A stretch of 64,000 nt of DNA from Pyrinomonadaceae bacterium (GCA_036263975.1 DATARW010000039.1:30669-94668); one strand, 5' to 3'. Shown: positions 88 to 46,693, numbered from the stretch's first letter. Notes: generated from the sequence alone by a model not told the origin. Program-made: numbers and translations.

Positions 88-198
88 GGAAGAATGATTA
101 ACCACAGAGGCACAGAGGACTGGGAGGGTGCACGGAGATTTTATCTTAACTCCGTGACCTCCCCGTGCTCTTCGGTATCTGCGTTGGTTATTTCTTCC
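88..198. repeat. About 110-bp imperfect palindrome built from CACAGAGG-type words; same family as 46567-46659
   Basis: Left arm GGAAGAATGATTAACCACAGAGGCACAGAGG... pairs imperfectly with right arm ...GCGTTGGTTATTTCTTCC. The 21-mer ATTAACCACAGAGGCACAGAG (97-117) recurs identically at 46567-46587. Confidence 0.8.
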
Positions 199-255
199 AC
201 GACACGCACAGGCATTGATTTAAACTGAAAACCTACGCGCGAAGGAGCAAGCAAA

Positions 256-780
256 ATGTCAGCAACGGCCCCCGCCAGACCCGAAGCGAACGAATACGCG
301 TCCTACTACGAGAAGTACATCTCGCTCGTCCCCGACGCCGGAGTGGTCGAGACGCTGGAGCGGCAGAACGAGGAGACGCTTGCGCTGCTCGGCACCGTCG
401 GGGAAGAGCGCGCGGGCTTCCGGTACGAGCCGGGCAAGTGGAGCATCAAGGAGGTCGTCGGCCACCTGATTGATGCCGAGCGCATCTTCGCCTACCGCGC
501 GCTGGCATTCGCGCGCGGCGAGCGGCAAGCTCTGCCCGGCATGGATCAAGACGAGTACATGGCCGGCGCGGACTTCGACGCGCGCACGCTCGTCAGCCTC
601 GCCGAAGAGTTCGCGCACGTGCGCCGCTCGAACGTCCTCATGCTGCGCGGACTCTCCGCCGATGCGTGGTCGCGCCGCGGCGTGGCGAGCGACAACGAGG
701 TGACGGTGCGCGCCCTCGCCTACATCATCGCCGGCCACGAAGCGCACCACGTACAGATTCTGCGCGCGAGATACCTGTAA
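256..780 (+). CDS. DinB-family (DinB_2 / YfiT-like) metal-dependent protein
   Basis: 174-aa ORF with a GAAGGAG RBS at 241-247. His-containing motifs HLIDAERIF and [10 protein letters not shown] are typical of the DinB four-helix-bundle family. Confidence 0.85.
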
Positions 781-786
781 GAGCAG

Positions 787-895
787 GGATGAAGGCGGAA
801 GGATGAAGACCGAGAAAAAGACGAGGCGAGTCGGAAAAAAGTCGAAGCCGACGAAGGATGACTCCGCCTCATCCTTCATCCTTCCGCCTTCATCC
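787..895. repeat. Palindrome with perfect 22-bp arms GGATGAAGGCGGAAGGATGAAG (7-nt words GGATGAA/GGCGGAA)
   Basis: Arm 787-808 is the exact reverse complement of 874-895. An inner second pair is GAGGCGAGTC / GACTCCGCCTC. Confidence 0.85.
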
Positions 896-1378
896 TTGCC
901 TTTGATCGCCGTCATCATGGGCAGCACGTCGGACTGGGAGACGATGCGCCACGCTGACGAAGTGCTGAAGCAGTTCGGCGTGCCGCACGAGTGTCTGGTC
1001 GTGTCGGCACATCGCACGCCGCAATGGATGGCGGAGTTCGCTTCCGGCGCAGAAGGACGCGGCCTCGAAGTAATCATCGCGGGCGCGGGCGGCGCGGCGC
1101 ATTTGGCCGGAATGGTCGCCGCACAGACGACCGTGCCCGTCCTCGGCGTGCCCGTCGAGAGCAAGGCTTTGAAGGGCTTGGACTCTCTGCTCTCAATCGT
1201 GCAGATGCCCGCAGGCGTCCCCGTCGGCACGCTCGCCATCGGCGTGAGCGGCGCGACCAACGCCGCCCTGCTCGCCGTCGCCATGCTCGCCAACACGCGG
1301 CCAGAACTGAGGGAAAAGCTACGGCGATTCCGCGAGGAGCAGACCGCGAAGGTGCGAGGGGTCACTCTGCCGACATGA
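803..1378 (+). CDS. purE: N5-carboxyaminoimidazole ribonucleotide mutase PurE (start uncertain)
   Basis: [11 protein letters not shown]...VSAHRTP...[14 protein letters not shown]...VPVLGVPV...[17 protein letters not shown] matches PurE throughout. The ATG at 803 lies inside the 787-895 palindrome, so the first ~30 codons are doubtful. TTG 896 or ATG 917 are alternative starts; none has a good RBS. Confidence 0.9.
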
Positions 1379-2535
1379 GCGCGATACTGCCCGGAGCCAC
1401 GGTCGGCGTACTCGGCAGCGGCCAGTTGGGTCGCATGTTCGCCATCGCCGCGCGAAGGATGGGCTACCGCGTCCACACCTTCTCGCCCGACTCCGACACG
1501 CCGACGGGACAGATTTCCGACCGCGAGTACCAGCGACCTTACGAAGACCTCGACGCCGTTGCCGAGTTCGCGCGCGGCGTCTCGGTGTTGACTTTCGAGT
1601 TCGAGAACGTGCCCGCCGAAGCGGTCGAGGCCGCCTCGCAGCGCGTGCCCGTCAGACCCTCCGGCGAGGTTCTCTACACGACGCAGAACCGACTGCGCGA
1701 AAAAAACTTTCTCTCGCGCTGGGGCTTCCCCGTCACACGCTTCCGCCACATCACCTCCGAAGAATCTTTGCGCGCGGCGCTCGCAGAGATCGGCTACCCG
1801 GCGATTCTCAAGACGGCAAGCTCCGGCTACGACGGCAAGGGACAGATGCGTCTGGACTCCGCCGAAGATGTCGAGCAAAGGGCCGCCTCTCTCGGAGAGC
1901 GCGAATGGATTCTCGAAGCCTTCGTTGACTTCGAGCGCGAGGTTTCGGTCGTCGCCGCACGCACCGCGGCAGGCGAGTTCAGGCACTACGGCGTCATCGA
2001 GAACGCGCACCGCCGTCACATACTCGATCTCTCGGTCGCGCCCGCGCGCGTCGCGGAATCGGTCGTGCGCGAAGCGGTCGAGATCACGCGCGCAGTCCTC
2101 GAAGCGCTCGACGTGGTCGGCGTCATGTGCGTCGAGTTCTTCCACGCGCGCGACGGTCGCCTGCTCATCAACGAACTCGCGCCGCGCCCGCACAACTCCG
2201 GCCACCTCACCGTTGACGCCTGCTTGACCAGCCAGTTCGAGCAGCAGCTCAGGGCCGTCTGCGGCCTGCCGCTCGGTTCGACCGAGATGACGCGGCCCGC
2301 GGCGATGGCGAACCTGCTCGGCGACCTCTGGCACGAGGGCGAGCCGGACTGGCGCGCGGTGCTCACGTTTCCCGCCGTCAAGCTCCACCTCTACGGCAAG
2401 TCGGAGGCGCGGCCCGGTCGGAAGATGGGACACCTCACGGCGCTCGCCGCGAGTGCGGAAGAGGCCGCACGCACCGTGCTCGCCGCGCGCGACGCGCTCA
2501 TGCGCTCGCGCGCCAGCGGACGAGGAAATCTTTAA
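1375..2535 (+). CDS. purK: N5-carboxyaminoimidazole ribonucleotide synthase PurK (ATP-grasp)
   Basis: The ATG at 1375 overlaps the purE stop (ATGA). N-terminus [21 protein letters not shown] plus ATP-grasp motifs ([26 protein letters not shown]). Confidence 0.9.
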
Positions 2536-3418
2536 GCGCGCCGTACATTTCCTTAAACGAGTCGGCGCAGAAAAGCGCGGGCTGAAAACGTGTCGGGTCG
2601 TACTCGGCGCGCGCGGCCTCTTCGAGATTGAGCGGTCGCAGCTCCGCCCCGCTCATCGCCTCAAGCTCGCCCGCCGAAGAGAGCAGCCCCGTGCCGTAAG
2701 CCTTGACCTCGCCGCCTTCGCGCAGCACGCCGAACTCGATTGTGAACCAGTAGACGCGAGACAGGCGTTCGAGTGCCTCCGGCGCGTCGGTGCGGCGGAC
2801 GGCTTCGCCGAAGAGCCGGTTGAGTTCGGCGAAGCGTGGGCTGGCGAGCGTCAGCGCGTGGCCGAGCAGCTCGTGAACCACGTCCGGCTCCGGCGTGTAG
2901 AACGGCGTCGAGTGGTGGCGTATGTACTGCGTGCACAGGAACACACCGTCGGCCAGCGATTCGAGGAAGACGCGCGGCGCGACGAGTCCGGCCACAGGCT
3001 CAAGCCGGAATCCGCTGATCGCCTGCACCCTCTCCGACACCTCGCGGAGCTGCGGAATCGAAGCGCGCGGAAGGTCGAGGCGGCGCGCGGCTTCGAGATA
3101 CTCGGCGCAGGCGTGTTGGCGGTGCGCGGGTTCGAGCGCGTCGCGGATCGCGCGCCAGAGCGCGTGCTCCTCTGCGGTGTAAGGCGCGTCGGGGACGGTC
3201 GCGCCGGGTTTATGATCGAGCGCGAGCTGCGCGATGCGATTACGGCGCGCGCGGTACTCGGCGTCGCGGAAGCCCGGATGATCCGGGTCGAGCCGGACGA
3301 TTGCGTTGCGATCAGATGTCTTGTCGTCCGCGCCCGCCTGTTCGTCCGCCTCCGCCGTTACCTGCCGCGCGTCAACGTGGTCGAGGAGCAGTTGCTTGCC
3401 TGCCTGCGTCGTGTCCAT
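2498..3418 (-). CDS. phhA: Phenylalanine-4-hydroxylase (aromatic amino acid hydroxylase)
   Basis: DHPGFRD..YRARR, VFLCTQYIRHHSTPFYTPEPDVVHELLGH and YWFTIEFG...KAYGTGLLSS are hallmark motifs. ATG at 3418 with GGAGG 8 nt upstream. The longer track ORF (to 3577) runs through a terminator hairpin. Confidence 0.9.
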   Translation of the reverse strand: MDTTQAGKQLLLDHVDARQVTAEADEQAGADDKTSDRNAIVRLDPDHPGFRDAEYRARRNRIAQLALDHKPGATVPDAPYTAEEHALWRAIRDALEPAHRQHACAEYLEAARRLDLPRASIPQLREVSERVQAISGFRLEPVAGLVAPRVFLESLADGVFLCTQYIRHHSTPFYTPEPDVVHELLGHALTLASPRFAELNRLFGEAVRRTDAPEALERLSRVYWFTIEFGVLREGGEVKAYGTGLLSSAGELEAMSGAELRPLNLEEAARAEYDPTRFQPALFCADSFKEMYGALKDFLVRWRASA

Positions 3419-3720
3419 TTTGAAAACCTCCTTCGGGCGCGCGCCTGAAAACGCGCGCAAAAAAACGGCCACCGAATCCTCCCGCGTCGGAAGGTTCGAT
3501 GGCCGGTAAGCCTTTGAAGCCTGTCTTAAATTCGCGCCAGGTGACTTTACGTGCGCCGACAGCCTCTTACCGCCCAACCCCTCCGCGCGGGCGCGGGGCC
3601 GTAATAGTAGTAAGAGCGGTAGAGATTGTGCTGTCGAACGTTCATTGCGCTCACCCGTAACAGCGTCGCACGCGTTCGGCAGCGACGCTTCGACTCAACA
3701 CTAGCCGCGCCCCGCGCCCC
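3419..3720 (-). promoter_or_regulatory. About 300-nt structured 5' leader of phhA (candidate attenuator/riboswitch, class unknown)
   Basis: On the minus-strand transcript, the 5' GGGCGCGGGGC pairs with GCCCCGCGCCC about 130 nt downstream. That stem encloses AGCGTCGC/GCGACGCT and GTCGAA/TTCGAC stems. A second domain, GGTAAG..CTGTC/GACAG..CTTACC, precedes the terminator. Confidence 0.4.
3459..3504 (-). terminator. Intrinsic terminator/attenuator hairpin about 40 nt upstream of the phhA start
   Basis: Minus-strand RNA GGCCAUCGAA-(18 nt)-UUCGGUGGCC followed by G+U7 (plus-strand A-run 3459-3465). Confidence 0.6.
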
Positions 3721-3838
3721 TTGTCAACTCGGAAGCTTAGAGGATGTGTGTAGGCCGCCTTGCTTCGGCAGTCGCGGGCCGGGGTGTATAATTTCAGGCG
3801 ACTCCCCTGGTCTATACTTTGGCAGAACGGAGCAGGCA

Positions 3839-4480: not shown

Positions 4481-4628
4481 GGTTCGCGCCCCGACCCCGA
4501 AAGGTTGGAACAGAGCAGCGGACTACTGAATCGTTCCGTCCGTTCCCGCCGTCCGATGCGCCGGGCGGCACAGCAATCTATAGTGCACTTGCCGTGAGCC
4601 AACGTATCCTTACAAAGAGGTGACAGGG

Positions 4629-7871: not shown

Positions 7872-8074
7872 CTCGGAAGAAGCCGGGCCGAGCTTCGCCT
7901 ATTTTATTCAGGAATCCTGCATGAACCGCGCATGAATGAGTATAAACGACGATTTATGCGCCCTTGCTGAGAACGGGCGAAGCTCCGCCGTGTTGACGCA
8001 AGCGATGCGCGGCGGGCGCGTCCCGCAGTTGTTTCCGGTCACAGGCAAGTGACGATTGAGAAGGAGCTGCAATA

Positions 8075-10759: not shown

Positions 10760-10838
10760 GTGGGTGTTGGGTGTTGGGTGCTGGTGAAACCGGCGCACCG
10801 AGCTTAACACCCAACACCAACACCTAACACCCAGCACC
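10760..10838. repeat. Periodic palindrome, 7-nt words GGGTGTT/GGGTGCT versus CACCCAA/CACCTAA
   Basis: GTGGGTGTTGGGTGTTGGGTGCTGGTG (10760-10786) pairs, with bulges, to CACCCAACACCAACACCTAACACCCAGCACC (10808-10838). Confidence 0.8.
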
Positions 10839-10859
10839 TAACATCCATCGGAGGGATTT

Positions 10860-11963
10860 ATGAAAGCAATCGCAGTCACACCGGGGAAGCCAAACAGCAT
10901 GCACCTCGTCGAGATGCGGACGCCGGAAGTTGCGGACGTTTCCGGCGGACGCGGCGTGCTCGTCAAGGTGCTGAGGGTGGGAGTTGACGGAACCGATAAG
11001 GAGATCAACGCGGCACAGTACGGGCAAGCGCCGCCGGGCTTCGACTTCCTCGTCACAGGCCACGAGAGCTTCGGACAGGTCGAGGCAGTTGGGCCTGCGG
11101 TGACGGAAGTTAAGCCGGGCGACTACGTTGTCGCCACCGTCCGTCGTCCGGGCAAGAGCATCTACGACCTCATCGGCACGAGCGACATGACGACCGACTC
11201 CGTTTACTACGAGCGCGGCATCAATCTCCTGCACGGCTACCTCGCCGAGTTCTACGTGGACTACGCCGAGTTCATCGTCAAGATGCCGCAGGGCTTGAAA
11301 GAGGTGGGCGTGCTTTTGGAGCCGCTGACGGTCGTCGAGAAGGGCATCACGCAAGCCTTCGAGATTCAACGCCGTCTGCGCGTGTGGAAGCCGAAGCGCG
11401 CGGCGGTGATGGGCGCGGGCACGATTGGGCTGCTCGCCACGCTCGTCCTTACCTTGCGCGGGCTGGAAGTCATCACCTTCGGGAAGATACCGAAGCCGTA
11501 TCTCAACTCGGATTTGATCGAGGCGCTCGGCGCGACCTACTTGACGAGCGACGAGCTGCCCGTCGCCGAGTCGCCTAAAAAATATGCAGGCGGCTTCGAT
11601 CTCATCTTCGAGGCCACAGGCTACTCGCCCATCGCCTTCGACTCGATGCAGGCGCTCGCCAAAAACGGCGTGCTCGTCCTTTCGAGCGTCACGGGCGGCG
11701 ACCGGCGCATCGAGGTTCCGGCGGACAAGATCAATCTGGAGTTCGTCCTCGGCAACAAGGTGATGGTCGGGACGGTCAACGCCAACCGCGAATATTTCGA
11801 GGCGGGCGTGCGGGATATGTCGCAGGCCGAGCTGGAATACCCCGGCTGGCTCGCGCGTCTGTTGACCCACCCGGTCAGAGGACTTGAGAACTACCGGGAA
11901 CTGCTCGACAAGCTGACGAACGCGAAAGACGCCATCAAGGTCTTCTGCCAGGTGGCGGAGTGA
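10860..11963 (+). CDS. Zn-dependent MDR-family dehydrogenase, archaeal-type glucose 1-dehydrogenase-like
   Basis: MKAIAV...[18 protein letters not shown]...[16 protein letters not shown] and GAGTIGLL Rossmann motif. GGAGGG RBS. Confidence 0.8.
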
Positions 11964-11974
11964 AAGCAAGGCAA

Positions 11975-12071
11975 AAGTAAAAAGGCAAAAGAAGGGTTTC
12001 GGGTGCTGGGCGCTGGTGATTTTCAACAAGCCAGAACTCAGAACCTAACACCCTTCGCTGCCTTTTTACTT
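11975..12071. repeat. Palindrome AAGTAAAAAGGCA..GAAGGGT / ACCCTTC..TGCCTTTTTACTT with an inner GGGTGCTGGGCGCTGGTGA word
   Basis: Outer arms 11975-11997 and 12050-12071 are complementary. The inner part shares GGGTGCTGG with the 10760-10838 element. Confidence 0.8.
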
Positions 12072-12087
12072 TTGACTTCTTCGGCGC

Positions 12088-15070: not shown

Positions 15071-15186
15071 CGTCCTCGCCCTCCCTTTTAAGATGCTCCG
15101 CGCCGCGACGACGCCCGCGCGGAATTTACGTGTCGTCACGCCCTTCCGGTTTGCAGACAGTTTAGCAGAACGGGGAGCAGCCAGTA

Positions 15187-15270
15187 CCGCGAGCGGGCTG
15201 CGAGCGGGTTGCGGCTTCAGAGGCGCGGACTTCGCCTCGGAGCGTAAACCCGCTCGCAGCCCGCTCGCGG
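15187..15270. repeat. Palindrome with perfect 24-bp arms (11-nt words GCGAGCGGGCT/GCGAGCGGGTT) in a divergent intergenic region
   Basis: CCGCGAGCGGGCTGCGAGCGGGTT (15187-15210) is the exact reverse complement of 15247-15270. Confidence 0.85.
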
Positions 15271-15353
15271 CTCTGTTCTCTAACCGCCTTGCCTTCCGCT
15301 TCCACGCGTGCTAGAAACCAAACGCTCTCACGCGCAAACTCCCCCGTCAGAAG

Positions 15354-22928: not shown

Positions 22929-22976
22929 GGCAAGTCTGAATCATCAAATTCACGACTTGCCGATGAGTTTTTTTGC
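22929..22976 (+). terminator. Intrinsic terminator after rpoD
   Basis: GGCAAGTC-(17 nt)-GACTTGCC followed by GATGAG and a T-run. Confidence 0.65.
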
Positions 22977-24876: not shown

Positions 24877-24964
24877 AAAGTCAGAAGTCCGCAACGCTGA
24901 AACGCTGAACTGAAGGATGACTGTCTTTCAGTTCAGCGTTTCAGCGTTGCGGACTTCTGACTTT
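24877..24964. repeat. Perfect palindrome with 38-bp arms and a 12-nt loop; probable bidirectional terminator between convergent genes
   Basis: AAAGTCAGAAGTCCGCAACGCTGAAACGCTGAACTGAA (24877-24914) is the exact reverse complement of 24927-24964. The internal 8-nt word AACGCTGA is repeated. Confidence 0.9.
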
Positions 24965-28564: not shown

Positions 28565-28587
28565 CGGAGCAATCATAAAAGCTCGAA

Positions 28588-28664
28588 GTTCAAGGTTCAA
28601 AGCTCAAAGCTCAAAGTCGGAGGCCATGTTCTCAACTTTGAACCTGGAACCCGGAACCTTGAAC
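28588..28664. repeat. Periodic palindrome, 7-nt words GTTCAAG/GTTCAAA/GCTCAAA versus GAACCTG/GAACCCG/GAACCTT
   Basis: GTTCAAGGTTC (28588-28598) is complementary to GAACCTTGAAC (28654-28664). The inner arms pair imperfectly. Confidence 0.8.
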
Positions 28665-28670
28665 TGACAT

Positions 28671-29658: not shown

Positions 29659-30555
29659 TCAGAGATTACTGGTCGTGTTCGAGCTGACATCCAGCCTCTG
29701 GCCCCCTGCCTCCGCTTGCAAGTTTTCAGTGTCCGCCCCGACCCTCTTCATTTCTTCCCCGGCGGCATCGCGCGTGCGGGGTTCGAGCGCATCGAGGATG
29801 GCGGCGCGCAGGCGCGTGCCGTCGAGTCCGCGGCGTATCTGCCCGGCCTGCACGAAGGAGATGAGGCCGGTCTCCTCCGAGACGACGACGGCGACGGCAT
29901 CCGTGTCTTCGGTGATGCCGATGGCGGCGCGGTGGCGCGTGCCGAGGTCTTTCGAGAGCAGAGGGTTCAGCGTCAACGGCAGGAAGCACGCGGCGGCGGC
30001 GGCGCGGTGGCCGCGGATGACGACCGCGCCGTCGTGCAGCGGGGTCGCCGGATTGAAGATCGTGACCAGCAGGTCGTAGGAAAGCTCTGCGTCCATCTTC
30101 ACGCCGCCCTCGATGACGTTGCGGAGGTTGACGCCGCGCTCGACGACGATGAGCGCGCCGGTCTTCGTCGAGGCGAGCGTCGTCGCCGCCAGGACGATCT
30201 CGTCGTAGACGCCCTCGCCGAACTGCCCCCGGTGGCGCAGAAGGAAAGGCATGCGAAAGCGGTTGCCGAAGGAGATGAGCGCCTGCCGGATTTCGTTCTG
30301 GAAGAGGACGATGATGGCGACGCCGACGTAGAGCGGTGCGGGCCGCAGAATGAATTCCAGAGTTGCCAGGTCGTAGCGCGCGGCAGTCCAGTAGAGCAGG
30401 GCGAGTCCGCCGATGCCGGCGGCCATCGGCGCTGCGCGCGTGCCGCGGATGAGCCTCAGCAGCGCGTAAACCAGCAGGAAGACCAGCGCGATGTCCGCGA
30501 AGTTTCGCGGCTCGCGCAGGCTTTCGAGGTACTGGTTTGGCGACTGAAGCAGCAT
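29659..30555 (-). CDS. cdaA: Diadenylate cyclase CdaA (DAC domain, 3 TM)
   Basis: TPLHDGAVVIRG...ACFLPLT...LGTRHRAAIGITEDTDAVAVVVSEETGLIS is the DisA_N/DAC signature. Confidence 0.9.
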   Translation of the reverse strand: MLLQSPNQYLESLREPRNFADIALVFLLVYALLRLIRGTRAAPMAAGIGGLALLYWTAARYDLATLEFILRPAPLYVGVAIIVLFQNEIRQALISFGNRFRMPFLLRHRGQFGEGVYDEIVLAATTLASTKTGALIVVERGVNLRNVIEGGVKMDAELSYDLLVTIFNPATPLHDGAVVIRGHRAAAAACFLPLTLNPLLSKDLGTRHRAAIGITEDTDAVAVVVSEETGLISFVQAGQIRRGLDGTRLRAAILDALEPRTRDAAGEEMKRVGADTENLQAEAGGQRLDVSSNTTSNL

Positions 30556-30558
30556 GAT

Positions 30559-30683
30559 GGATTTTTGATTTTAGATTTTTGATTTGCGATTTGCGCGCGC
30601 GGGCGAAGGTCGGGTTGTGTCGCAACTTGGAAATTCAAAGTCGAACTCCAAATCAAAAATCGGAAATCGGAAATCAAAAATTC
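30559..30683. repeat. Periodic palindrome, 7-nt words GATTTTT/GATTTTA/GATTTGC versus AAATCAA/AAATCGG
   Basis: Left arm 30559-30595 and right arm 30648-30683 are reverse-complementary in register, with mismatches. Confidence 0.8.
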
Positions 30684-30686
30684 TGT

Positions 30687-31634: not shown

Positions 31635-31950
31635 AAGCGACCTCCGCCCTTGTGTGCTTGCACGCCTCCGCGCCGATTATGCTGCAAAAACGGGCGCAAA
31701 TCAACGCGCCCGTCTCTCTGGTACTGATGGAATTCCTGTCGCCGGCCTGACCAGAGGTGTCAATACGGCGAGGCCGCGCACGCGACCACCCGAAGCGCAC
31801 GCGGCCCCTCGCGCCCCGGACTGTGAAGCCGGGGCAGCGGCTCAGTCTCACCCTAAGACGCGCCCGCACTAATCAACAACTAAAATGCCTTTATCCGTGA
31901 CGCTCATATGGTATCCTCTCGCACGTTCCAGTCTTTGAAAATAAGGCAAC
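31635..31950 (-). promoter_or_regulatory. Structured leader upstream of the CDF exporter (candidate metal-sensing riboswitch/attenuator)
   Basis: A 12-bp stem (plus coordinates 31772-31806), a CCCCGG/CCGGGG stem and further helices precede the terminator at 31686-31713. Confidence 0.4.
31686..31713 (-). terminator. Intrinsic terminator inside the 5' leader of the CDF gene
   Basis: Minus-strand ACGGGCGC-GUUGAUUU-GCGCCCGU followed by U5, about 50 nt upstream of the start codon. Confidence 0.6.
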
Positions 31951-32040
31951 GACCGGATGCTTGACTCTCCCACTACCGGGTGATGGGCGTCGCCGAGAGA
32001 AGACCGCGAGGACTTTTGGCGACATCAAGCGGCGAGAGCA

Positions 32041-32064
32041 GTTTAGTCACATTCGTGACTAAAC
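32041..32064. promoter_or_regulatory. Perfect 10-4-10 palindrome, candidate operator of the XRE regulator
   Basis: GTTTAGTCAC-ATTC-GTGACTAAAC, 47 nt upstream of ATG 32111. Confidence 0.35.
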
Positions 32065-32110
32065 GCAAGCGGTGCGTGCGAGCGAGGGCCTTATCAGGAG
32101 GAAACTCCTG

Positions 32111-32410
32111 ATGGGTGGCGCTGCGCGAGAGCGGCCTGCGAGGCTCGCCGAGAAGCTTCTTCAGATACGCAATGCTTTCGGCTTGTCGCAGACTGAAATG
32201 CTCAGCCGCGTTGGGCCAGATAAGAGCGGCTACCGACATTACATCTCACATTTCGAGACGGGGAAACGCGAGCCGTCGCTGCTCATCCTCCTGGAATACG
32301 CCCGCGTAGCTAACGTCTATGTCGAGGCTTTGATTGACGACGAGCTAGACCTGCCCGCCAGGCTGCCGAGCGCGAAGAAGCACGAAGGCGTGAGGCGTCG
32401 CGGTCGGTAA
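32111..32410 (+). CDS. XRE-family helix-turn-helix transcriptional regulator
   Basis: LLQIRNAFGLSQTEMLSRVG...ISHFETGKREPSLLILLEYARV is a Cro/C1-type HTH. ATG 32111 has AGGAGG 8 nt upstream; the track start 32072 is GTG. Confidence 0.75.
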   Translation: MGGAARERPARLAEKLLQIRNAFGLSQTEMLSRVGPDKSGYRHYISHFETGKREPSLLILLEYARVANVYVEALIDDELDLPARLPSAKKHEGVRRRGR

Positions 32411-32467
32411 GCACTTCGCTCCCGCGTAGGAATTTCCTTCAACTTCAAAACTAAGCCGGAACAAACT

Positions 32468-33600: not shown

Positions 33601-33678
33601 CCGTAAACCGCGAGCCGTAAACCGTGACGAGATGAGAACAGGTCTCGACCCGTCACGATTTACGGTTCACCTGTCACG
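33601..33678. repeat. Periodic palindrome, 14-nt words CCGTAAACCG(C/T)GA..
   Basis: CCGTAAACCGCGAGCCGTAAACCGTGACGAG (33601-33631) pairs with CTCGACCCGTCACGATTTACGGTTCACCTGTCACG (33644-33678). Confidence 0.8.
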
Positions 33679-34780: not shown

Positions 34781-34817
34781 AAAACTGTTTTCGCACTTCG
34801 CGTGTGCGCCGCGTCAA

Positions 34818-36530
<1,713 letters not shown>

Positions 36531-38706: not shown

Positions 38707-38750
38707 GAAGGGGCCGCGGACTCGAACGAAGTCCGCGGCCCCTTCGTTTG
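38707..38750. terminator. Strong bidirectional intrinsic terminator between the porin gene and nuiA
   Basis: GAAGGGGCCGCGGACT-CGAACGA-AGTCCGCGGCCCCTTC (16-bp perfect stem) followed by GTTTGT. Confidence 0.75.
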
Positions 38751-38806
38751 TCACGGGCGTGAATTAGCCGCGGCGGCGCAAGGTGCCTGCGCCGCCGCCG
38801 CGGCGT

Positions 38807-39217
38807 TTACGTCTCGACGACGCGCGTCGAAAGCCCGATGAGGCCGCCCGACGGGCCGCGCCCCAACACATAGACGGGCATGTTGACGACGCCCACGCGG
38901 AAGACCTTCAAGTCCGACAAGTTCTCTTCGAGCAGCCGCAGCAGCGCCTGAAATCTGCGCGCCGCAGCCAGCTCCGCCCCGCCCTTCCACTCAGGCTCGG
39001 ACGCGGCGGCGCGGAAGAACTCGGCGGCGCTAAGCGCCTCGACCGGGGCTGCGGGGTCATGCCCCGTCAGGCCGCGCAGGAACTCCGGCGTCAAGGAGGC
39101 GACGCCTTCCCATCTGAACACCTCCAGCGGGTAGTCCGACTCGCTCATGAAAGACAGCCCGCGCGTCGCCTCTTCCAACTCCTCAATCAATTGGTCGTCG
39201 GTCTTCATAATTTTCAT
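38807..39217 (-). CDS. nuiA: Nuclease A inhibitor-like protein (NuiA family)
   Basis: 136 aa. SESDYPLEVF.W and the overall pattern resemble NuiA. It lies immediately downstream of a NucA-type nuclease gene. Confidence 0.7.
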   Translation of the reverse strand: MKIMKTDDQLIEELEEATRGLSFMSESDYPLEVFRWEGVASLTPEFLRGLTGHDPAAPVEALSAAEFFRAAASEPEWKGGAELAAARRFQALLRLLEENLSDLKVFRVGVVNMPVYVLGRGPSGGLIGLSTRVVET

Positions 39218-39237
39218 GCTCGGTCTTCATAATTTTC
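39199..39237. repeat. Direct duplication (period 22 bp) covering the nuiA start
   Basis: CGGTCTTCATAATTTTC occurs at 39199-39215 and again at 39221-39237. Confidence 0.85.
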
Positions 39238-39312
39238 GAGCGCTGCCCAAAGCAGTCCACCCCCTGCGGGGCGGGAGGCGGACTGTCCCGCGCGCGCCGC
39301 GGTGGGCGCGGC

Positions 39313-40605
39313 CTACTGGTTGTCCACCGTCGCCTCGATGACGTTCTGGATGCTGACGGGGACGTTCGAGAAAAAGTCGTAGCCCGTCAAAGCCTCCACC
39401 TGGTCAACGCTCACGCGATAGCTGCGCCAGTCGTTGGCGCGTATCCCCTGCGTGTTCGGCAGGATGACGGCGATGGTGCGCGTCGAGGTCGTGACGCGCG
39501 ACACGTCGTTCGTGCCGACGGGCAAGACCATGATGACCTTCCAGGTCTGCGAAGGGACGGCGACGTGCCCGGAGGCGATGGTGGTGGTCGTCCCGCCGTT
39601 CGACCCCGTGCCGCCCGAACCCGACCCGCCCGCGATGATGTACAGCTCGTCGCCGGAGCTGACGAGCGTGCGGCAGTAAGATTCGAGAGCCTCCCAGGGC
39701 CCCTGGTTGTTGTCGGGAGCCTGCGGCATCATGTTGCTCATCAGGAACGTGGCCGAGTTGTCCGCGACCGTGCTCGTGCGGTCGCCGGAGGGGCAGTGGT
39801 GGCCGCGGTCGAAGCCCGACCCCGTGTAGTCCGTGCCCTGCACCTGATACCAGCCCGCGGGCAGGGTGGTGTCGTTGCGGAAGTCGTCCTGGCGCGCGGT
39901 GCTGCCGAGCCACGTCGAATCCAGGTGCCAGCTTACCCAGTTGGGACGCCCCTTGTCGCGGTTGTATGAGACGGCGTACTGCGGCTTGTCGAGCAGGTAG
40001 TTCGAGGGCTGGTTCACGTCCGCCGTCGCGTTCGAGGGGTTGCCCATCGTCAGGTGCTCGCCCGCCGGGGGCGGCGGCGCGCCGCTGGGATTGACGGTGA
40101 CGTTGTCAATGTTGATGCGGTTGGCCCCGCCGCTCACCTTGCGGATCGAGAGGCGGACGGCACCAGCCGAGTTGACGTTGAAGGTCGCCGTCTGAAGCGT
40201 CGTCGAAGTCGTGCTGACGGTCGAGCCGACCTTGGAGTAGCTGGAGCCGCCGTTGGTCGAGGCCCAAAGCTCCCAGGACGACGCGCCGTCGGAGCTGAAG
40301 ACGGCGTGCTGGACGGTGACGGTTCCGGCGCTTGAGAAGTCGAAGTTGGTGCTGATCGCGCCGACGTTGCGAATGCGCGCGGAGGCCGCGCCCGTCTTGC
40401 GGTCGGTCGAGAGGTTGCCGATGAGCGCGTCGTCGAAGAACCACCATCCCGTCGAGAGGAAAACGTTGGCGGCGGCGTAAGCGGTCTTCGAGCCGCTCTC
40501 GAAGCCTTCGGTCATGGCTTGCGCCCCGGCCTTGAACGGCAGCGAGAGCGCGACGAGCAGTGCGAGCGCGCAGGCGAGCGCGGCGTGGGTGCGGAACTTT
40601 CTCAT
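39313..40605 (-). CDS. nucA: Secreted DNA/RNA non-specific endonuclease (NucA-like, beta-beta-alpha-Me) with an N-terminal beta-rich domain
   Basis: Signal peptide MRKFRTHAALACALALLVALSL. Catalytic motif GFDRGHHCPSGDR. ATG 40605 with AGGAGG upstream. Confidence 0.85.
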   Translation of the reverse strand: MRKFRTHAALACALALLVALSLPFKAGAQAMTEGFESGSKTAYAAANVFLSTGWWFFDDALIGNLSTDRKTGAASARIRNVGAISTNFDFSSAGTVTVQHAVFSSDGASSWELWASTNGGSSYSKVGSTVSTTSTTLQTATFNVNSAGAVRLSIRKVSGGANRINIDNVTVNPSGAPPPPAGEHLTMGNPSNATADVNQPSNYLLDKPQYAVSYNRDKGRPNWVSWHLDSTWLGSTARQDDFRNDTTLPAGWYQVQGTDYTGSGFDRGHHCPSGDRTSTVADNSATFLMSNMMPQAPDNNQGPWEALESYCRTLVSSGDELYIIAGGSGSGGTGSNGGTTTTIASGHVAVPSQTWKVIMVLPVGTNDVSRVTTSTRTIAVILPNTQGIRANDWRSYRVSVDQVEALTGYDFFSNVPVSIQNVIEATVDNQ

Positions 40606-40838
40606 CAAAAGTCTCCTCCTGTGGTTTGGGAAAGGGAAAGGCGTGCGCGCCCGACCGCTGGCTGGCCGGGCACACGTCGAGAGTTGCGAAGGGTTAGTGC
40701 GCGGCTGCCGGGGGGCAGGCCGTCCCCGGTAACTGCGCGGACTCAGAAGCTGAGGAGGGTTGAACTGCGGGGCGAAGTGGGTGTCACTGTATCCCGTGCC
40801 GGGGAAGCCTTCAAGTTTTTTTTCGTTAAAGAGGTTTC

Positions 40839-40878
40839 GGAAAAGGCGGAAGCCTGATTGTGTAAGGAGGGCTTCCGC
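40839..40878 (-). terminator. Intrinsic terminator after the AIM24 gene pair
   Basis: Minus-strand GCGGAAGCC-(15 nt)-GGCUUCCGC followed by CUUUUCC, 8 nt after the stop at 40886. Confidence 0.6.
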
Positions 40879-40885
40879 TTCCCAG

Positions 40886-41797
40886 TTACCACCGTTGTCT
40901 GGTCGCCGTGCTGTGGCGCGTGATGTTGCGGCCATTGTCGTGCATGTGCGCGTAGGCCGACTGCACGGCCACGCGGCCCGGCCCGAAGAGGCGCAGCCAG
41001 AGGTAGCGCTCGCCCCACGAGCGCCAGGAGCGCGTCGTCCCGTTCGGGTGCTCGAAGTGGAGCTGCATCTGCACGGAAGGGTCTTTGAAGAGAAGCGCCG
41101 TCGGCTTCACCAGAATCGTCTGCCCCTGCGCGAGGTGGCGCGTGAAGACGTTGCCCGCGGCGTGCAGCAGCAGAAGGCCCGGCGACTGCGGGGCGTAGAA
41201 GCGATCCATGTATGCGCCCAGGGGGTAGTGCGTCTCGGTCTCGTCGCCGTTGCGCGTGTTGAACCAGACGTTCGTGGAGAACCAGTCGTAGGTGATGTTG
41301 AGGGTCGCCACCATGAAGATGTGCTCGCGCACGTCAACGCCCTGGCCGGGTTGGAGCGGGAGTGCGATCACTTCGCCTGCGGCGTCCATCGAGAAGGCGA
41401 TGTGGCCGGGGCCGACGGCCTGCGTCATGATGAGCGGGAGTCCCGCGAAGAGGCGCTTCCAAGCGCCTTTCAGAGACATCGCGGTGATGTTCACCTGCGG
41501 CTCTTTCCACAGAAGGACGTGGTGCGAGAAGTAGACGCCGTCCGCAGGCGAGAGGTTGAAGTCGGCGACGGGGACGTAAGTTCCTTCGATCTGGCAGTGG
41601 GAGTTGCCGAACTGCAACTTCGCCATGTCGTGCCTGCCCGGTAGCTCCGTCCAGCCGGAGTTCGTCACGATTCGCTCGACATCAATGGTCGCGCCGCAGG
41701 CGGGGCAGTTCAACTGCGTGCCGTCCGAGACGAGGCCGCACCAGGGGCACGTGTGCGTGCGCGTCGGTTGGTTCGGGGCCGTGCCGCCGAGAGTCAT
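40886..41797 (-). CDS. Zinc-ribbon + AIM24/DUF124 (TIGR00266-like) protein
   Basis: N-terminal CPWCG...CPACG ribbon. The AIM24-like body follows (FSHHVLLW, GPGHIAFS, VDVREHIFMVAT, GLLLLHAAGNVF, LVKPTALLF, LFGPGRVAVQS). Confidence 0.75.
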   Translation of the reverse strand: MTLGGTAPNQPTRTHTCPWCGLVSDGTQLNCPACGATIDVERIVTNSGWTELPGRHDMAKLQFGNSHCQIEGTYVPVADFNLSPADGVYFSHHVLLWKEPQVNITAMSLKGAWKRLFAGLPLIMTQAVGPGHIAFSMDAAGEVIALPLQPGQGVDVREHIFMVATLNITYDWFSTNVWFNTRNGDETETHYPLGAYMDRFYAPQSPGLLLLHAAGNVFTRHLAQGQTILVKPTALLFKDPSVQMQLHFEHPNGTTRSWRSWGERYLWLRLFGPGRVAVQSAYAHMHDNGRNITRHSTATRQRW

Positions 41798-41812
41798 GGC
41801 CGAAAGCCCTCC

Positions 41813-42850: not shown

Positions 42851-42913
42851 TGATTCCTCCGAGTTGACTCGATGTTCTCGCCCCGACAAGATCGCGCGCG
42901 GGCGGCACGCAAG

Positions 42914-44821
42914 CTACTCGCGCCCCTTCAGCGTGTAGGCGAGCAGGCGCTCATCCTTCGCAGTGTAGAGCAGGCCCGACACCTCGTCGCTGATGAAGCG
43001 CGCGTCCGGCTCATTGAGACGGACAGAGCGCGCGGCCTCGCCCGTGTTGACGTTGACGCCGACGAGTCCGCGCCCGCCGCCGCCTCTTAACTCCGTGTAG
43101 AAATACATCCACTGCCCTTGCAGGGCCGCGAGGCGGCGGCGACGCAGGAGGAAGCGCGAGAGCCGATCCAACTGGCTCGCCGGGTCGAGCCGGTCGAGCA
43201 GTCGGTCTTCCACGTCAACTGAGGGTCGCGGCACGTTCTGAACGGACGGGCGCGGCACGCTCGGCAGGCGCGGCGCGGAAGCCAGACGTGCGCGTGAGAG
43301 AATGCCGAAGGTCGAGAACTGTTGGCGCACGTAGTCGCGTGCGTAATCGCGCGCGCGGTTTTCGGCGAGCGTGGTCAGCCCCGGCAGCGTCGCGTGCGCC
43401 GCGAGACCCGACCAGCGAAGGCTGTTGAGCGTGCCGAGCAACTGCGCGCTGCGGAAGACGGTCGAGGCCGTGCCGCCATAGCGGAAGTAGAGCGAGGCCG
43501 CGCGCGCCGCGACCGCCGCCACGGTGCGCAGGACGCCGCGGCCCGGCGGGTCGTGCCGCTCGCGCCAGAGTTCGCTCCCGCCCGTAGAGTTGAAGGCCGC
43601 CAGCTCGTTCGTCCCGCCGACGACCACCTCGCCGCCCTCGTTGACGAGGACGAAGGCCGCGCGCTCGACGTGGTGCGAAACCTTCAGCCGCCGCTTGCCC
43701 GTCGCCGCGTCGAGGAAGATGAGGTCGTCGTGGTCTGCGACGACGACCGTGGAGGCGTCCGGGAGCGCGATGTTCGTGATGCCCTTGTCAGCGCCCTTGT
43801 AGCGCCAGATGACTTTGCCGCTCGACGCCTCGACGGCGCTGACGCCGAAGGGGCCGCGCGCGCGCGGCTCGCCGTCCGCGAGGCGCGTGAACTCGCCGCC
43901 CGTCCTGACGTAGATGACGCCGCCCGCGAGAATCATCTCCGGCGTCACGCCCAGGTCTTTCGACTCCCAGACGGTATCGCCGTCCTCGCGCGCGACGGCG
44001 CGCACGTGGCCGCGCCCCGAAATGTAAACGTTGCGCTCGTCGGCGAGCGGTTCCGCGTCCGTGAGTGCGAGTCCGTCCTCGTTGACGTGAAACTTCTCGC
44101 GGCGGCGCTCGCCGCCCGTCTGCGCGTCGAGCGAGGTGACGCCCTCGTAGAAGAGGTAGAGCCGCCCGTCGAGGAAGGCGGGCGGGCGATAGTTGTCGAG
44201 CGTGTAATCTACTTCGTCGCCCTCGCCCTCGCCTCCGCCGAGCGCAGGCATCATCTCGACTTCGCTCTCCAGCTCGCGATGCCAAAGCTCCTCGCCCGCC
44301 GCGAGGTCGAAGAGATGAACGACCGGCTTCTTCTTGAAGCCGTCGCGCGCCGTGCCGTGCGCGCCGTGCACGAGGACTGCGGCGAGCAGGTGCGCTTCGG
44401 GGTCGAAGGCCGTCTGCATCAAGGAGCCGCGCACCTTGTCGCTGCGCCAGAGCGCGTCGCCGGTGAGCAGGTCTGCGGCTTCGAGCCGCGTCTTGTCGCC
44501 GCGCTCGAAGGTCAGGAGCAGAACGTCCGTGCCGGGAACGGGCGCAACATCCGTCTCGTTGAGGCGCGCGTTCTTCAGACGCCAGAGCACGTCGCCCGTC
44601 TCGCCGTCCACGCCGTAGAGAGACTTCTCCGTGCCGACGACGACGACGCCCAGCTCCGTCGCCTGATAGAAGCGAACCCGCCCGTCGAACTTCGCAGCCC
44701 ACTGCTGCGCCGCCGACGCGCGCCGCGCGCCGCCGCAAAGAAGCAGGGCGACGGCGGCCAGCAAAAGCAGGAGACGTTTTTGCGCCGTCCGGCGCAGGCT
44801 TCCATGTGTCGAGCGAGGCAC
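42914..44821 (-). CDS. Secreted PQQ-like (BamB-type) beta-propeller repeat protein
   Basis: Signal peptide, then repeated G(D/E)xxW(R/E) propeller blades (GDVLWRL, GDALWRS, GEELWHR, GDTVWES, GKVIWRY, GSELWRE). Confidence 0.8.
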   Translation of the reverse strand: MPRSTHGSLRRTAQKRLLLLLAAVALLLCGGARRASAAQQWAAKFDGRVRFYQATELGVVVVGTEKSLYGVDGETGDVLWRLKNARLNETDVAPVPGTDVLLLTFERGDKTRLEAADLLTGDALWRSDKVRGSLMQTAFDPEAHLLAAVLVHGAHGTARDGFKKKPVVHLFDLAAGEELWHRELESEVEMMPALGGGEGEGDEVDYTLDNYRPPAFLDGRLYLFYEGVTSLDAQTGGERRREKFHVNEDGLALTDAEPLADERNVYISGRGHVRAVAREDGDTVWESKDLGVTPEMILAGGVIYVRTGGEFTRLADGEPRARGPFGVSAVEASSGKVIWRYKGADKGITNIALPDASTVVVADHDDLIFLDAATGKRRLKVSHHVERAAFVLVNEGGEVVVGGTNELAAFNSTGGSELWRERHDPPGRGVLRTVAAVAARAASLYFRYGGTASTVFRSAQLLGTLNSLRWSGLAAHATLPGLTTLAENRARDYARDYVRQQFSTFGILSRARLASAPRLPSVPRPSVQNVPRPSVDVEDRLLDRLDPASQLDRLSRFLLRRRRLAALQGQWMYFYTELRGGGGRGLVGVNVNTGEAARSVRLNEPDARFISDEVSGLLYTAKDERLLAYTLKGRE

Positions 44822-45174
44822 GCTGGTGAGACTACCTTATCGCGCGACCGCCCCGCAAATTCTCTCGCGGTCGGAGGCGCGTTGGCCGCGCGGCTCTGTT
44901 TTTTTCAGTGCCTCGGACTCGAAGCGGCTTTCGGTGAGGACGGAGGGAGCGCAGCGCAACTCCGGCGTGAGACCGCCGAAAGCGATGAGCTTCTGTAGAT
45001 TTCTCTCAAGCGAAGGCGGGCGGTCAAGCGAATCACTTGCCCCAAACGCCGATGCGTTTTTGCACCAGCTTTTCAACCTCCAGCGGCACGCCGTCGGCTT
45101 TCGCCTGACGAATGAACTCGCCGTCAATCTTGAAAATCCGCATCTTGGGTGCAGAACCCCTTCGCCGAAGTTGA

Positions 45175-45540
45175 CTTCAAGACGAGCGGCGGCTCGGACA
45201 GCTACAACGCCTTCCCGGCTTCTGGCAGTCAGACCTGATCTTGAGCAAGCGCATCCCCGTGACCGAGACCGTCAGGCTCGAATTCCGCACGGAGATTTTC
45301 AACGTCTTCAACCACGCGAACTTCGCCAACCCGTCCTCGACGCTCAACGTCGCGTTGCCGTCGCTCAACTTCAATCCGGCGGCGGGCGGCTTCGTGCTCG
45401 GCGCGGGGCAGCAGCCCGGACAAGCCTACACGCAGTCGGCTGCGGGCGCGTCCTTCGGCCTCCTGCGCCAGACGGTCGAGCGCGTGGTCGGCCTCGGCAC
45501 GAACCGCCAGATTCAGTTCGCGCTGCGCCTGAGTTTCTAA
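45175..45540 (+). pseudogene. C-terminal remnant of a TonB-dependent outer-membrane receptor
   Basis: ...SDLILSKRIPVTETVRLEFRTEIFNVFNHANF...RQIQFALRLSF is the last ~100 aa of a TonB-dependent barrel ending in Phe. There is no upstream plug/barrel sequence. A GSDSYNA fragment lies in another frame at about 45190. Confidence 0.65.
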
Positions 45541-45568
45541 TACCGGGTTGGTAAGGGGGCATGGTTCG

Positions 45569-45624
45569 GAGTTCAAGCTTTGGCTTGCTCCCCCGTCGAG
45601 GACGGCAAGCCAAAGCTTGAACTC
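45569..45624. repeat. Perfect 20-bp-arm hairpin after the receptor remnant
   Basis: GAGTTCAAGCTTTGGCTTGC (45569-45588) is the exact reverse complement of 45605-45624. Confidence 0.85.
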
Positions 45625-45784
45625 TGAAACCCTCCTTCAATTGCATCCTGGGATAAGAAGCCGCTTGACGAAGCTCTTGGGCGGCGCGCGCGTCCACGCG
45701 CCGGGCGCAGTTGTGATAACCTTACAGCCTGCTTTGCCGACGACTTGACTCTCGAACATCCCGCGGGCCGACGGCCTGACTCTT

Positions 45785-46495
45785 ATGACCAGACGCGTAG
45801 TGATCGTCGAAGACGACCCGGACATCGCCGAAGGGCTGAAGTACAACCTGGAGCGCGAGGGGCTGGAGACGCGCGTGGCGCTCACGGGCGAGCAGGGATT
45901 GCAGGCGGCGCTCGACACACGGAACCCGCCCGCGCTTATCATCCTCGACCTGATGCTGCCCGGCATGTCCGGGACGGAGCTGTGCCGGCGTCTGCGCCGC
46001 GAGCCGCAGACGCGCCGCACGCCCATCATCATGCTCACGGCGCGCACGAGTGAGGCCGACCGCGTTGCGGGCCTCGACCTCGGCGCGGACGACTACATCT
46101 CGAAGCCCTTCTCCGTGCGCGAGCTGCTGGCGAGGGTGCGCGCCGTCCTGCGCCGCGCCGACGAGTCCGTCTCGCCGCGCTACGAGGACGCGCGTCTCTC
46201 GATAGACTTCGACGACATGCGTGCCACCTGCGACGGTGCAGCGGTCAAGCTCACGCGCAAGGAGTTCTCCCTGCTCACGACGCTCGTGCGCGCCGCGGGC
46301 CGCGTCGCCACGCGCCAGCAGCTTCTCGACAACGTCTGGGGCTACGACTACTACGGCGACACGCGCACGCTCGACGTGCACATCCGCCGCCTGCGCCAGA
46401 AGCTCGGCCCCTGCGGCGACGCAATCGAGACGGTCGTCGGCGTCGGCTACCGCTTCACCGGCTGCTCCGACAAAAGGGAAGCGACCAGCGAGTAA
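45785..46495 (+). CDS. OmpR/PhoB-family response regulator
   Basis: Receiver domain (VVIVEDDPDI..., LIILDLMLPGMSG, MLTA) plus winged-helix (LTRKEFSLL..., RTLDVHIRRLRQKL, GVGYRF). Confidence 0.9.
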   Translation: MTRRVVIVEDDPDIAEGLKYNLEREGLETRVALTGEQGLQAALDTRNPPALIILDLMLPGMSGTELCRRLRREPQTRRTPIIMLTARTSEADRVAGLDLGADDYISKPFSVRELLARVRAVLRRADESVSPRYEDARLSIDFDDMRATCDGAAVKLTRKEFSLLTTLVRAAGRVATRQQLLDNVWGYDYYGDTRTLDVHIRRLRQKLGPCGDAIETVVGVGYRFTGCSDKREATSE

Positions 46496-46566
46496 GGGAA
46501 GCGACCGGCAGCGAGTGACGGGCGGCCTCGCCCTTTTCAATTCAGACTCAAAGCCTGCCGCGCCGG

Positions 46567-46693
46567 ATTAACCACAGAGGCACAGAGAGCACCGAGGATG
46601 CACAGAGGGATTTGAGTTCTCTGTGTCATCTCAGTGCCCTCTGTGCCTTTGTGGTTAATGGAACTTGGGGTCTGTGGTTAATGGAACTTGGGG
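46567..46693. repeat. CACAGAGG-family palindrome (46567-46659) followed by a 2 x 20-bp direct repeat (period 23), lying between the response-regulator and kinase genes
   Basis: ATTAACCACAGAGGCACAGAGAGCACCGAGGATGCACAGAG pairs with CTCTGTGTCATCTCAGTGCCCTCTGTGCCTTTGTGGTTAAT. GTGGTTAATGGAACTTGGGG occurs at 46651-46670 and 46674-46693. Confidence 0.85.

Follow-up and report, generated by a model that had tools for sequence, protein, structure and literature searches.

The intergenic spacers of a 64,000-nucleotide stretch of the genome of a Pyrinomonadaceae bacterium (GCA_036263975.1; contig C14:30669-94668, hereafter the window) contain long palindromes whose arms are made of short tandem words, which raises the question of what these palindromes are and how they arise. 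An earlier note on this DNA had described them as a class with one architecture and a different sequence at each locus, and had suggested that they form by word slippage and palindromisation rather than by copying one consensus. The class is real and abundant: it consists of many families of repeats with heptamer arms, a fixed polarity and a fast turnover. By analogy with a described system, the hairpins are probably gene-less relatives of the element type that forms intervening sequences in bacterial 23S rRNA, and would be RNA stems processed by RNase III.

The Pyrinomonadaceae belong to the class Blastocatellia of the Acidobacteriota, and the host is a soil acidobacterium. Its GlmM-type protein has its nearest matches, with up to 75% identity, in metagenome-assembled genomes of Pyrinomonadaceae. 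Its assembly amounts to 4.43 Mb in 81 contigs, has a G+C content of 64.6% and is 88.5% complete. Genes were called from codon usage by our own procedure, in which the start codons are crude.

A genome-wide class of hairpins

The whole genome was scanned by seed and extension for hairpins with at least 20 paired arm positions. The scan returned 580 hairpins, 538 of which are mainly intergenic. The 2514 intergenic regions contain 488 of them, compared to 0–1 in each of five dinucleotide-preserving shuffles, which gives the excess over shuffled sequence that the earlier note had proposed to look for. The best period of the arms is 7 or 14 nt in 436 of the 538 intergenic hairpins, and the mean self-match at a lag of 7 nt is 0.65 in the arms versus 0.28 in other intergenic DNA. 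The population thus amounts to some 500 long hairpins, with heptamer arrays numbering about 850, and occupies about one intergenic spacer in five.

In the window, an inverted-repeat scan recovered all the palindromes of the original list at, or within a few bases of, their first coordinates. Their arms are 20–41 nt long and 77–98% complementary, and every locus folds as a long hairpin with a minimum free energy of about −32 to −87 kcal/mol. The G+C content of the window hairpins is 0.43–0.56 (0.70 for the one at 15182-15275), versus 0.65 for the genome. Arm units of 7, 8 and 11 nt were found by Tandem Repeats Finder (TRF), in agreement with the word lengths first given, and the palindrome at 33601-33678 has a 7/14-nt period. 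The gene contexts that had been named also agree with Pfam (GlmM-type mutase, YbbR/CdaR, DAC/CdaA, CDF transporter, response regulator and kinase). No Rfam family matched any of the hairpins.

Anatomy and polarity of the arms

The element is an inverted pair of short tandem arrays, in each of which a word of 7 nt, or occasionally of 8 or 11 nt, is repeated about 3–6 times. The genome has 847 intergenic heptamer-periodic arrays, and 88% of them have a complementary partner within 600 nt. The pair has a polarity: whichever strand is read, the array rich in G/A comes first (5') and the one rich in C/T second (3'). Indeed, the partner of a G-rich array is found to its right in 310 cases and to its left in 40. 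Similarly, the 5' arm contains more G than C in 440 hairpins and less in 65, and the corresponding numbers for purine excess are 433 and 93. The bias persists when families rather than copies are counted (5' arm G-rich in 66 versus 25, p=2e-5). This rule, according to which the G-rich array is the 5' arm, goes beyond what hairpin formation alone requires. The polarity, and the link of the arms to PF05635 genes described below, had both been missed by the earlier note and are new here.

The loops are 5–82 nt long, and both their sequence and their length differ among copies of one family. Nested forms recur as units; in one of them, seen at 11968-12078, the outer stem is of the AAGGCAA type and encloses a GGGTKYT stem. 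In 160 of the 538 hairpins no reading frame stays open through the 5' arm, and in 30 none does through the 3' arm, an effect which mostly follows from base composition; stop triplets are mildly enriched in the G-rich words (80 versus 68±5, p=0.016). The rotation-aligned profile of all words has a loose N-R-R-N-N-K-Y pattern, for which no null model was run, so that no shared core is claimed.

Families and copy number

The arms of the window are repeats. With a threshold of at least 80% identity over at least 70% of the arm length, each of them was found at 4–170 places of the genome, which contradicts the idea of a different sequence at each locus. Clustering by blastn placed 473 of the 580 hairpins in 20 multi-copy groups, the largest of which have 217, 112, 30, 23 and 19 members, and left 107 singletons. 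The 33 copies of the CCGTRAA family have in common an inner end without periodicity (CCGTGACRAG), and their identity is about 90% across the innermost 24 nt. In another genome of the same genus (G025), the coding DNA of which is 81–85% identical to that of the window, arms of the GGATGAA/GGCGGAA, AAGGCAA and CACAGAGG families occur with 90–100% identity at many non-orthologous places.

These observations argue against an origin without copying. The earlier note had itself considered that its proposal would fail if clustering revealed copies of a few consensus repeats. This is largely what was found, as judged from the clusters, the recurrence of the arms, the shared inner end and the arms of G025. 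The families are however many: there are 161 distinct consensus heptamers, all of which are joined by single-mismatch steps.

Position relative to genes

Among spacers of at least 40 nt, hairpins occupy 32% of those between convergent genes, 21% of those between co-directional genes and 9% of those between divergent genes, although the last are the longest. Between co-directional genes, the hairpin begins a median of 4 nt past the stop codon, often overlapping it; it fills 73% of the spacer and leaves a median of 20 nt to the next start. The earlier comparison with repetitive extragenic palindromes (REP) and bacterial interspersed mosaic elements (BIME) is therefore apt as regards location, but not as regards sequence, since there is no conserved REP head.

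A T-tract follows the hairpin on the sense strand in 56 of 379 cases and on the antisense strand in 62, and the stems are low in GC (median 0.50). The absence of T-tract asymmetry indicates that the hairpins are not canonical intrinsic terminators, and this candidate was ruled out. Terminator-like hairpins with a T-tract are present separately in the window, at 22929 and 38707, so that the distinction originally drawn between the two types holds.

About 200 genes start within 25 nt of a C/T-rich 3' arm; in the window, this is the case of the starts at 30555 (−) and 28600 (−). The stems that adjoin such starts measure 25–40 bp. A Shine-Dalgarno-like 4-mer precedes 17% of the genes that start at most 25 nt from a 3' arm, compared to 45% of the others, with start calls that are crude.

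Hairpin arms bracket PF05635 genes

The genome has five PF05635 genes. All of them lie between co-directional genes and are bracketed by inverted heptamer arrays, the 3' arm of which ends 4–8 nt before the next ATG. Each of these cassettes has a different word family. The words of the cassette on contig C5 are those of the window hairpin at 783-899, and the word family of the cassette on C2 is that of the hairpin at 10760-10838. One of the PF05635 proteins matches PDB entry 2RLD. At G000:C50:112383-112698, the match to PF05635 is split, with residues 1-23 in one frame and 19-105 in another, and this gene may be frameshifted.

The association extends to the whole family. PF05635 is present in 54 of 61 Pyrinomonadaceae genomes, in up to 22 copies, versus 1 of 14 control genomes. 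Cassettes were collected from 29 loci in 29 other genomes of the family (one per genus), and the 28 loci that could be analysed all lie between such arms. Altogether, the 33 PF05635 genes examined (29 genomes) are all inside heptamer arms, and 30 of these cassettes have a G-rich 5' arm. Since the same arms always bracket PF05635 genes in the family, the window hairpins appear to be the gene-less form of the cassette type.

The protein and the word vary together. The identity between PF05635 proteins is 74% when the arm words are at distance 0, 58% at distance 1 and 42–48% beyond (permutation p=0.0014), and the word of the cassette arms is conserved where the divergence is at the level of genera (L106/L084, L101/L104). 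Cassettes with the same word are found at orthologous and at non-orthologous sites, so that the gene and its arms travel as a unit.

PF05635 resembles Avd (PMC10053308). No match to a reverse transcriptase (PF00078) was found in the 88.5%-complete assembly, and a role as Avd, the accessory protein of diversity-generating retroelements, is therefore unlikely here; this context was rejected.

Evolution in related genomes

Spacers can be compared one by one between 21 and 42 kb of the window, where two metagenome contigs are collinear with it: L086, with about 90% identity, and L088, with about 84%. The hairpin at 30550-30685 is kept in L086, with one extra 7-nt word (GATTTTA) in one arm, which bears out the word slippage that had been proposed; in L088, the same site has GCTGTTA words. 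The hairpin at 28587-28665 belongs to the same family in L086 and has far more substitutions than the flanking genes, including a two-sided change from C-G to A-T.

At other spacers the family itself has changed. The spacer at 33601-33678 contains GCAGGAG words in L086, and AGTGACG together with nested AGCTAAC words in L088. The site at 24877-24964 has GGATGAA words in L088. At 34783-34818, the window has a 37-nt spacer free of hairpins, which in L086 and L088 is filled by different families. The comparison of orthologous spacers, which had been put forward as a way to distinguish compensatory change from turnover, thus revealed both: a compensatory change at 28587-28665, and the replacement of word families elsewhere.

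In G025, the hairpins of 783-899 and 10760-10838 are absent from the orthologous sites, the spacer of 88-198 has a solo GGATGAA array instead, and the element of 11968-12078 keeps its outer stem around a different loop. In the more distant Pyrinomonadaceae L006 and L013, the cdaR-glmM spacer contains hairpins with other words. Almost no such hairpins were found at 31 loci of Terriglobia and other Acidobacteria. The elements therefore evolve fast: whole words are gained and lost, and a spacer can exchange one family for another.

In five families, the arms of one copy match each other better than they match the arms of other copies (p<=0.002). The two arms of a copy are thus non-independent, a result with which selection, conversion and subfamily descent are all compatible. 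Direct repeats beside the palindromes are no more common than 15 nt further out, and target-site duplications were therefore not detected.

A model based on rRNA intervening sequences

The closest described system is the intervening sequence of the 23S rRNA of Coxiella burnetii, a stem-loop that contains an S23p (PF05635) open reading frame (ORF) preceded by tandem GACAGAT heptamers (PMC4990558). The number of GACAGAT words varies between strains, and RNase III excises the element by cutting at the first repeat (PMC4990558). Intervening sequences with an ORF also exist in Leptospira, Brucella and Haemophilus (PMC4990558). The cassettes described above resemble them in that inverted flanks form a stem around a PF05635/S23p ORF (the window loci share the arms only), and they resemble the Coxiella element in the tandem heptamers on the 5' side, the variable number of words and a G+C content below that of the host. 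The elements of the present genome differ in their location, in mRNA spacers between protein genes rather than in helix 25 or 45 of the 23S rRNA; moreover, about 99% of the copies have no ORF, and there are dozens of word families per genome. In another context, the 5' untranslated region of Haemophilus hmw, RNase III cuts a heptamer-repeat hairpin and thereby raises expression (PMC12721329).

On this basis, we lean, with slightly more confidence than doubt, towards the view that the hairpins are dispersed repeats of many families, which represent the gene-less form of the PF05635 cassette type and act as RNase III-processed stems in mRNA. According to this model, they would be transcribed within mRNAs, directly past stop codons and just before the next start codon. 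The transcribed arms would form double-stranded RNA stems of 20–40 bp, which RNase III would cut as it does in intervening sequences. Cutting would separate the cistrons, leave stem-capped 3' ends and free short leaders. The genome does contain an RNase III gene. Excision by this enzyme is published for Coxiella and inferred for the hairpins considered here.

Several points weigh against this model. Transcription, folding and cutting are each read from the DNA. Mismatches within stems have no sense-strand bias (234 G-U versus 207 A-C, p=0.22), so that there is no positive sign of selection on one RNA strand, and descent by subfamilies, rather than selection, could account for the better match between a copy's own arms. 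The host's own 23S rRNA is 2926 nt long, compared to the 2925 positions of the model, and has no intervening sequence. Three results count against gene-less hairpins and cassettes being a simple pair of non-autonomous and autonomous elements. First, a tblastn search of the gene-less loops with the 33 PF05635 proteins returned no remnants, which leaves the idea that these hairpins are decayed cassettes unsupported. Second, the commonest families (AAGGCAA, CCGTRAA and GTGATGA) have no resident cassette. Third, there is no clean relation between hairpin density and PF05635 copy number in seven PF05635-negative and seven PF05635-rich genomes, for which the samples were small (25–60 kb); G003, with no PF05635 match, has the highest density, and several PF05635-rich genomes have few hairpins.

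Alternative explanations

It is rather unlikely, but it deserves to be weighed, that the hairpins are bidirectional terminators without a U-tract, or protectors of 3' ends, which the host keeps at gene ends and for which tandem words are merely an easy way to grow a stem. The prevalence of the hairpins between convergent genes, their rarity in divergent spacers, their start a few nucleotides past stop codons and the fact that the same spacer keeps a hairpin in relatives although the words change would all fit such a role. Moreover, the 7-bp repeat hairpins of cyanobacteria have been proposed to stabilise transcripts or to couple translation (PMC2670836). But there is no preference for a sense T-tract, many hairpins lie inside conserved co-directional modules such as CDF-cdaA-cdaR-glmM, and some orthologous spacers are free of hairpins (34783-34818 in the window compared to L086; the 783-899 site in G025). 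In addition, near-identical arms in many copies across species and PF05635 genes in loops would not be expected of terminators that have evolved locally.

A bolder proposal, unlikely on present evidence, would unite the hairpins and the PF05635 cassettes in one mobile or self-maintaining system that has no conventional transposase. The pentameric four-helix-bundle protein would recognise its cognate words, which would explain why protein and word vary together, and would help stems with word arms to be copied or retained in transcribed spacers. The ORF-bearing intervening sequences of rRNA would then be the same elements, landed in rRNA, and the G-rich 5' polarity would be the signature of the copying mechanism.

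The words could also be DNA or RNA binding sites of an oligomeric protein; in the sharpest form of this hypothesis, each PF05635 pentamer binds its cognate array and the palindrome consists of two mirror-bound arrays. S23p is indeed a homopentamer (PMC4990558), and paired tandem hepta- or octamer sites were proposed by the authors of the Geobacter study to bind regulators (PMC2700814). The identity of PF05635 proteins tracks the arm word across genera (74% at distance 0 versus 42–48% from distance 2 on), the words of cassette arms persist over genus-level divergence, and arms are 97–100% identical between species whose coding DNA is 81–85% identical. Nevertheless, 161 consensus words face five PF05635 genes, the most abundant families have no cassette in this genome, and, in the genomes sampled, the density of hairpins bears no relation to the number of PF05635 genes. 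Covariation can also come from cassettes that are inherited or moved as units. Binding sites are thus a quite improbable explanation of the class.

Still less credit can be given to the model initially put forward in its pure form, namely slippage and palindromisation in place, with similar words as the convergent products of a mutational bias. The whole-word 7-nt indel between close relatives, the 107 singletons and the single network of mismatch steps that joins the 161 words are in its favour. On the contrary, arms recur 4–170 times with a common non-periodic inner end, the composite nested element recurs as a unit, identical arms occupy non-orthologous sites of another species, and a family has been abruptly replaced at one spacer between genomes that are 90% identical.

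Finally, ordinary miniature transposable elements with inverted repeats (MITEs) or REP doublets (REPINs), moved by the transposase of an insertion sequence (IS) or by a REP-associated tyrosine transposase (RAYT), are hardly credible: the hairpins are high-copy, extragenic and palindromic, the genome has 2–3 genes for Y1 transposases (PF01797) and the termini of the CACAGAGG family are TTAACC...GGTTAA, but the MITE model was rejected because there are no target-site duplications above the control level and because the interiors are not conserved between copies, while a REP-type origin is at odds with the lack of a common head (arms start with AAGG, AAAG, GTGA, GAAG, CGTG and others) and with the fact that a GTAG-headed palindrome family exists separately and is not heptameric.

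This GTAG-headed family (GTAGGGGCAGGGCTTGTCCCTGCCCG...) has 19 exact sites, such as C63:6721-6814 and C77:68413-68503, and looks like a classical REP/REPIN. None of the 2–3 PF01797 genes lies within 1.5 kb of its sites; the flanks of PF01797 genes were checked for this family only.

Comparison with other heptamer repeats

Convergent inverted arrays of the GGGAATC heptamer were described in Xanthomonas campestris and X. axonopodis by Rehm et al. in 2015 (PMC4692102). As in the present genome, these tandem heptamers are intergenic, the genome has about 65% GC, the G-rich strands are convergent and the arrays are rare between divergent genes. There are 70–75 opposite-strand pairs in Xanthomonas, and the two species share the type of repeat but not its length (PMC4692102). 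The Xanthomonas arrays consist of essentially one word, discussed as a G-quadruplex former, whereas most of the 161 words found here are unable to form a G-quadruplex. Here, 88% of the arrays are paired, and no link to PF05635 has been reported for Xanthomonas.

The short tandemly repeated repetitive (STRR) sequences of cyanobacteria, found for instance between hupS and hupL, are also intergenic 7-bp tandem repeats able to form hairpins (PMC2670836). Their hosts have low-GC genomes, the word types on record are few and the arrays of Nostoc are rarely paired (PMC4692102). In Geobacter metallireducens, three classes of sites (classes 1–3) are made of 3–5 tandem repeats of 7–9 nt that form opposite-strand pairs at a variable distance, with 16–48 copies per class (PMC2700814). 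They share with the present class the arrangement of short tandem repeats in opposite-strand pairs, but they have been read as protein binding sites, their classes are few and some lie at a fixed distance from IS elements (PMC2700814).

The likeness to enterobacterial REP and BIME lies in the high copy number, the extragenic palindromes, the enrichment at 3' ends and in operons, and the inverted units with variable linkers. The differences are the arms made of tandem words, the absence of a conserved GTAG/CGTC head, the greater length of the stems and the large number of families. The class is ordinary as intergenic palindromic repeats go; what is unusual about it is the diversity, the polarity and the link to a gene. 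No published description of it in Acidobacteria, nor of a general link to PF05635, was found in the literature.

About one spacer in five is nearly filled by a stem, and a Shine-Dalgarno-like motif is missing from most of the roughly 200 genes whose start is at most 25 nt from one; any effect of the stems on mRNA processing, stability or translation start would therefore touch many genes, in an abundant group of soil bacteria. The pairing with PF05635 offers a handle on the role of the S23p/Avd-like four-helix-bundle proteins outside diversity-generating retroelements, and on the origin of the ORF-bearing intervening sequences of rRNA. The repeats also break assemblies, and some contigs end in them.

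Individual loci of the window

The first hairpin of the window (88-198) is a degenerate member of the 8-nt CACAGAGG family (ATTAACCACAGAGGCACAGAGG...), located upstream of a DinB-family gene. It folds with −52.5 kcal/mol, TRF finds an 8-nt unit in two copies and its arm occurs at 7 places of the genome. The GGATGAA/GGCGGAA heptamer-arm hairpin at 783-899 lies 3 nt past the stop codon of the DinB-family gene and ahead of purE. Its arms (783-808 and 874-899) are 26 nt long and 96% complementary, and the arm occurs at 93 places. The longest purE ORF (803-1378, +) begins inside this hairpin, at 803, and its real start is probably near 905-917. Automated annotation thus tends to over-extend genes into the repeats, which adds wrong start codons to the spurious ORFs that the earlier note had pointed out.

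At 10760-10838, a GGGTGTT/GGGTGCT heptamer-arm hairpin lies 4 nt past the stop codon of a glycoside-hydrolase gene; its arms (10763-10786 and 10815-10838) are 88% complementary, and the arm occurs at 76 places. The element at 11968-12078 is nested, with an outer AAGGCAA/AAGTAAA stem and an inner GGGTKCT stem in the loop. The outer arms are 20 nt long and 95% complementary, the nested structure folds with −59.3 kcal/mol and the outer arm is found at 170 places. The glucose-dehydrogenase gene between these two elements (10899-11963) and the preceding GGGTGTT hairpin are missing at the orthologous site of G025: in that genome (contigs C101, L163, and C151, L168), the glycoside-hydrolase stop codon is directly followed by an AAGGCAA hairpin, and a dehydrogenase gene with 83% identity is on another contig. 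The rearrangement junctions around 10760-12078 between the window and G025 coincide with hairpin boundaries.

The hairpin at 15182-15275, between divergently transcribed genes, is rich in GC (0.70) and made of 11-nt words (GCGAGCGGGCT). Its 29-nt arms are 93% complementary and it folds with −87.7 kcal/mol. It is an atypical or borderline member of the class, found at only 4 places of the genome and a singleton in the clustering. The near-perfect hairpin at 24877-24964, between convergent genes, has 41-bp arms of 8-nt words (AACGCTGA) which are 98% complementary; it folds with −86.3 kcal/mol, and its arm occurs at 17 places.

Two heptamer hairpins fill spacers of the CDF-cdaA-cdaR-glmM module. 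The one at 28587-28665 (GTTCAAG/GCTCAAA), in the cdaR(YbbR)-glmM spacer, has 31-nt arms with 77% complementarity. The other, at 30550-30685 (GATTTTT/GATTTGC), in the CDF-cdaA spacer, has arms of 33–37 nt with 78–82% complementarity, and its arm occurs at 48 places. The palindrome at 33601-33678, a member of the CCGTRAA family (inner end CCGTGACGAG), fills a co-directional spacer and folds; its arm occurs at 76 places.

Two segments of the window, 38752-40888 (2.1 kb) and 31707-32459 (0.75 kb), are absent from the approximately 90%-identical L086. GC-rich hairpins that resemble terminators, at 38707-38745 and about 40844-40880, flank the longer one.

The hairpin at 45565-45628 (GAGTTCAAGCTTTGGCTTGC) is additional to those listed originally. 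It has 24-nt arms with 96% complementarity, folds with −55.1 kcal/mol and belongs to a cluster of 7 members. At 46567-46659, a hairpin of the CACAGAGG family lies between a response-regulator and a histidine-kinase gene (Pfam); its 41-nt arms are 83% complementary, and its 9-member cluster has TTAACC termini. Its end overlaps a 23-nt direct repeat (46650-46693, +), which TRF reports in 1.9 copies with 100% matches. This repeat copies the last 10 nt of the CACAGAGG palindrome together with 13 nt of flank, and could be a trace left by slippage or by an insertion.

The last quarter of the window, on the right (48000-64000), has a G+C content of 0.53–0.60, versus about 0.65, and heptamer hairpins are almost absent from it; it may be foreign or differently evolving DNA. 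It contains the sole Rfam match of the window, a cyclic di-GMP riboswitch aptamer (c-di-GMP-I-GGC, RF03167) at 58415-58516 (+), with a score of 62.3 bits, above the gathering score.

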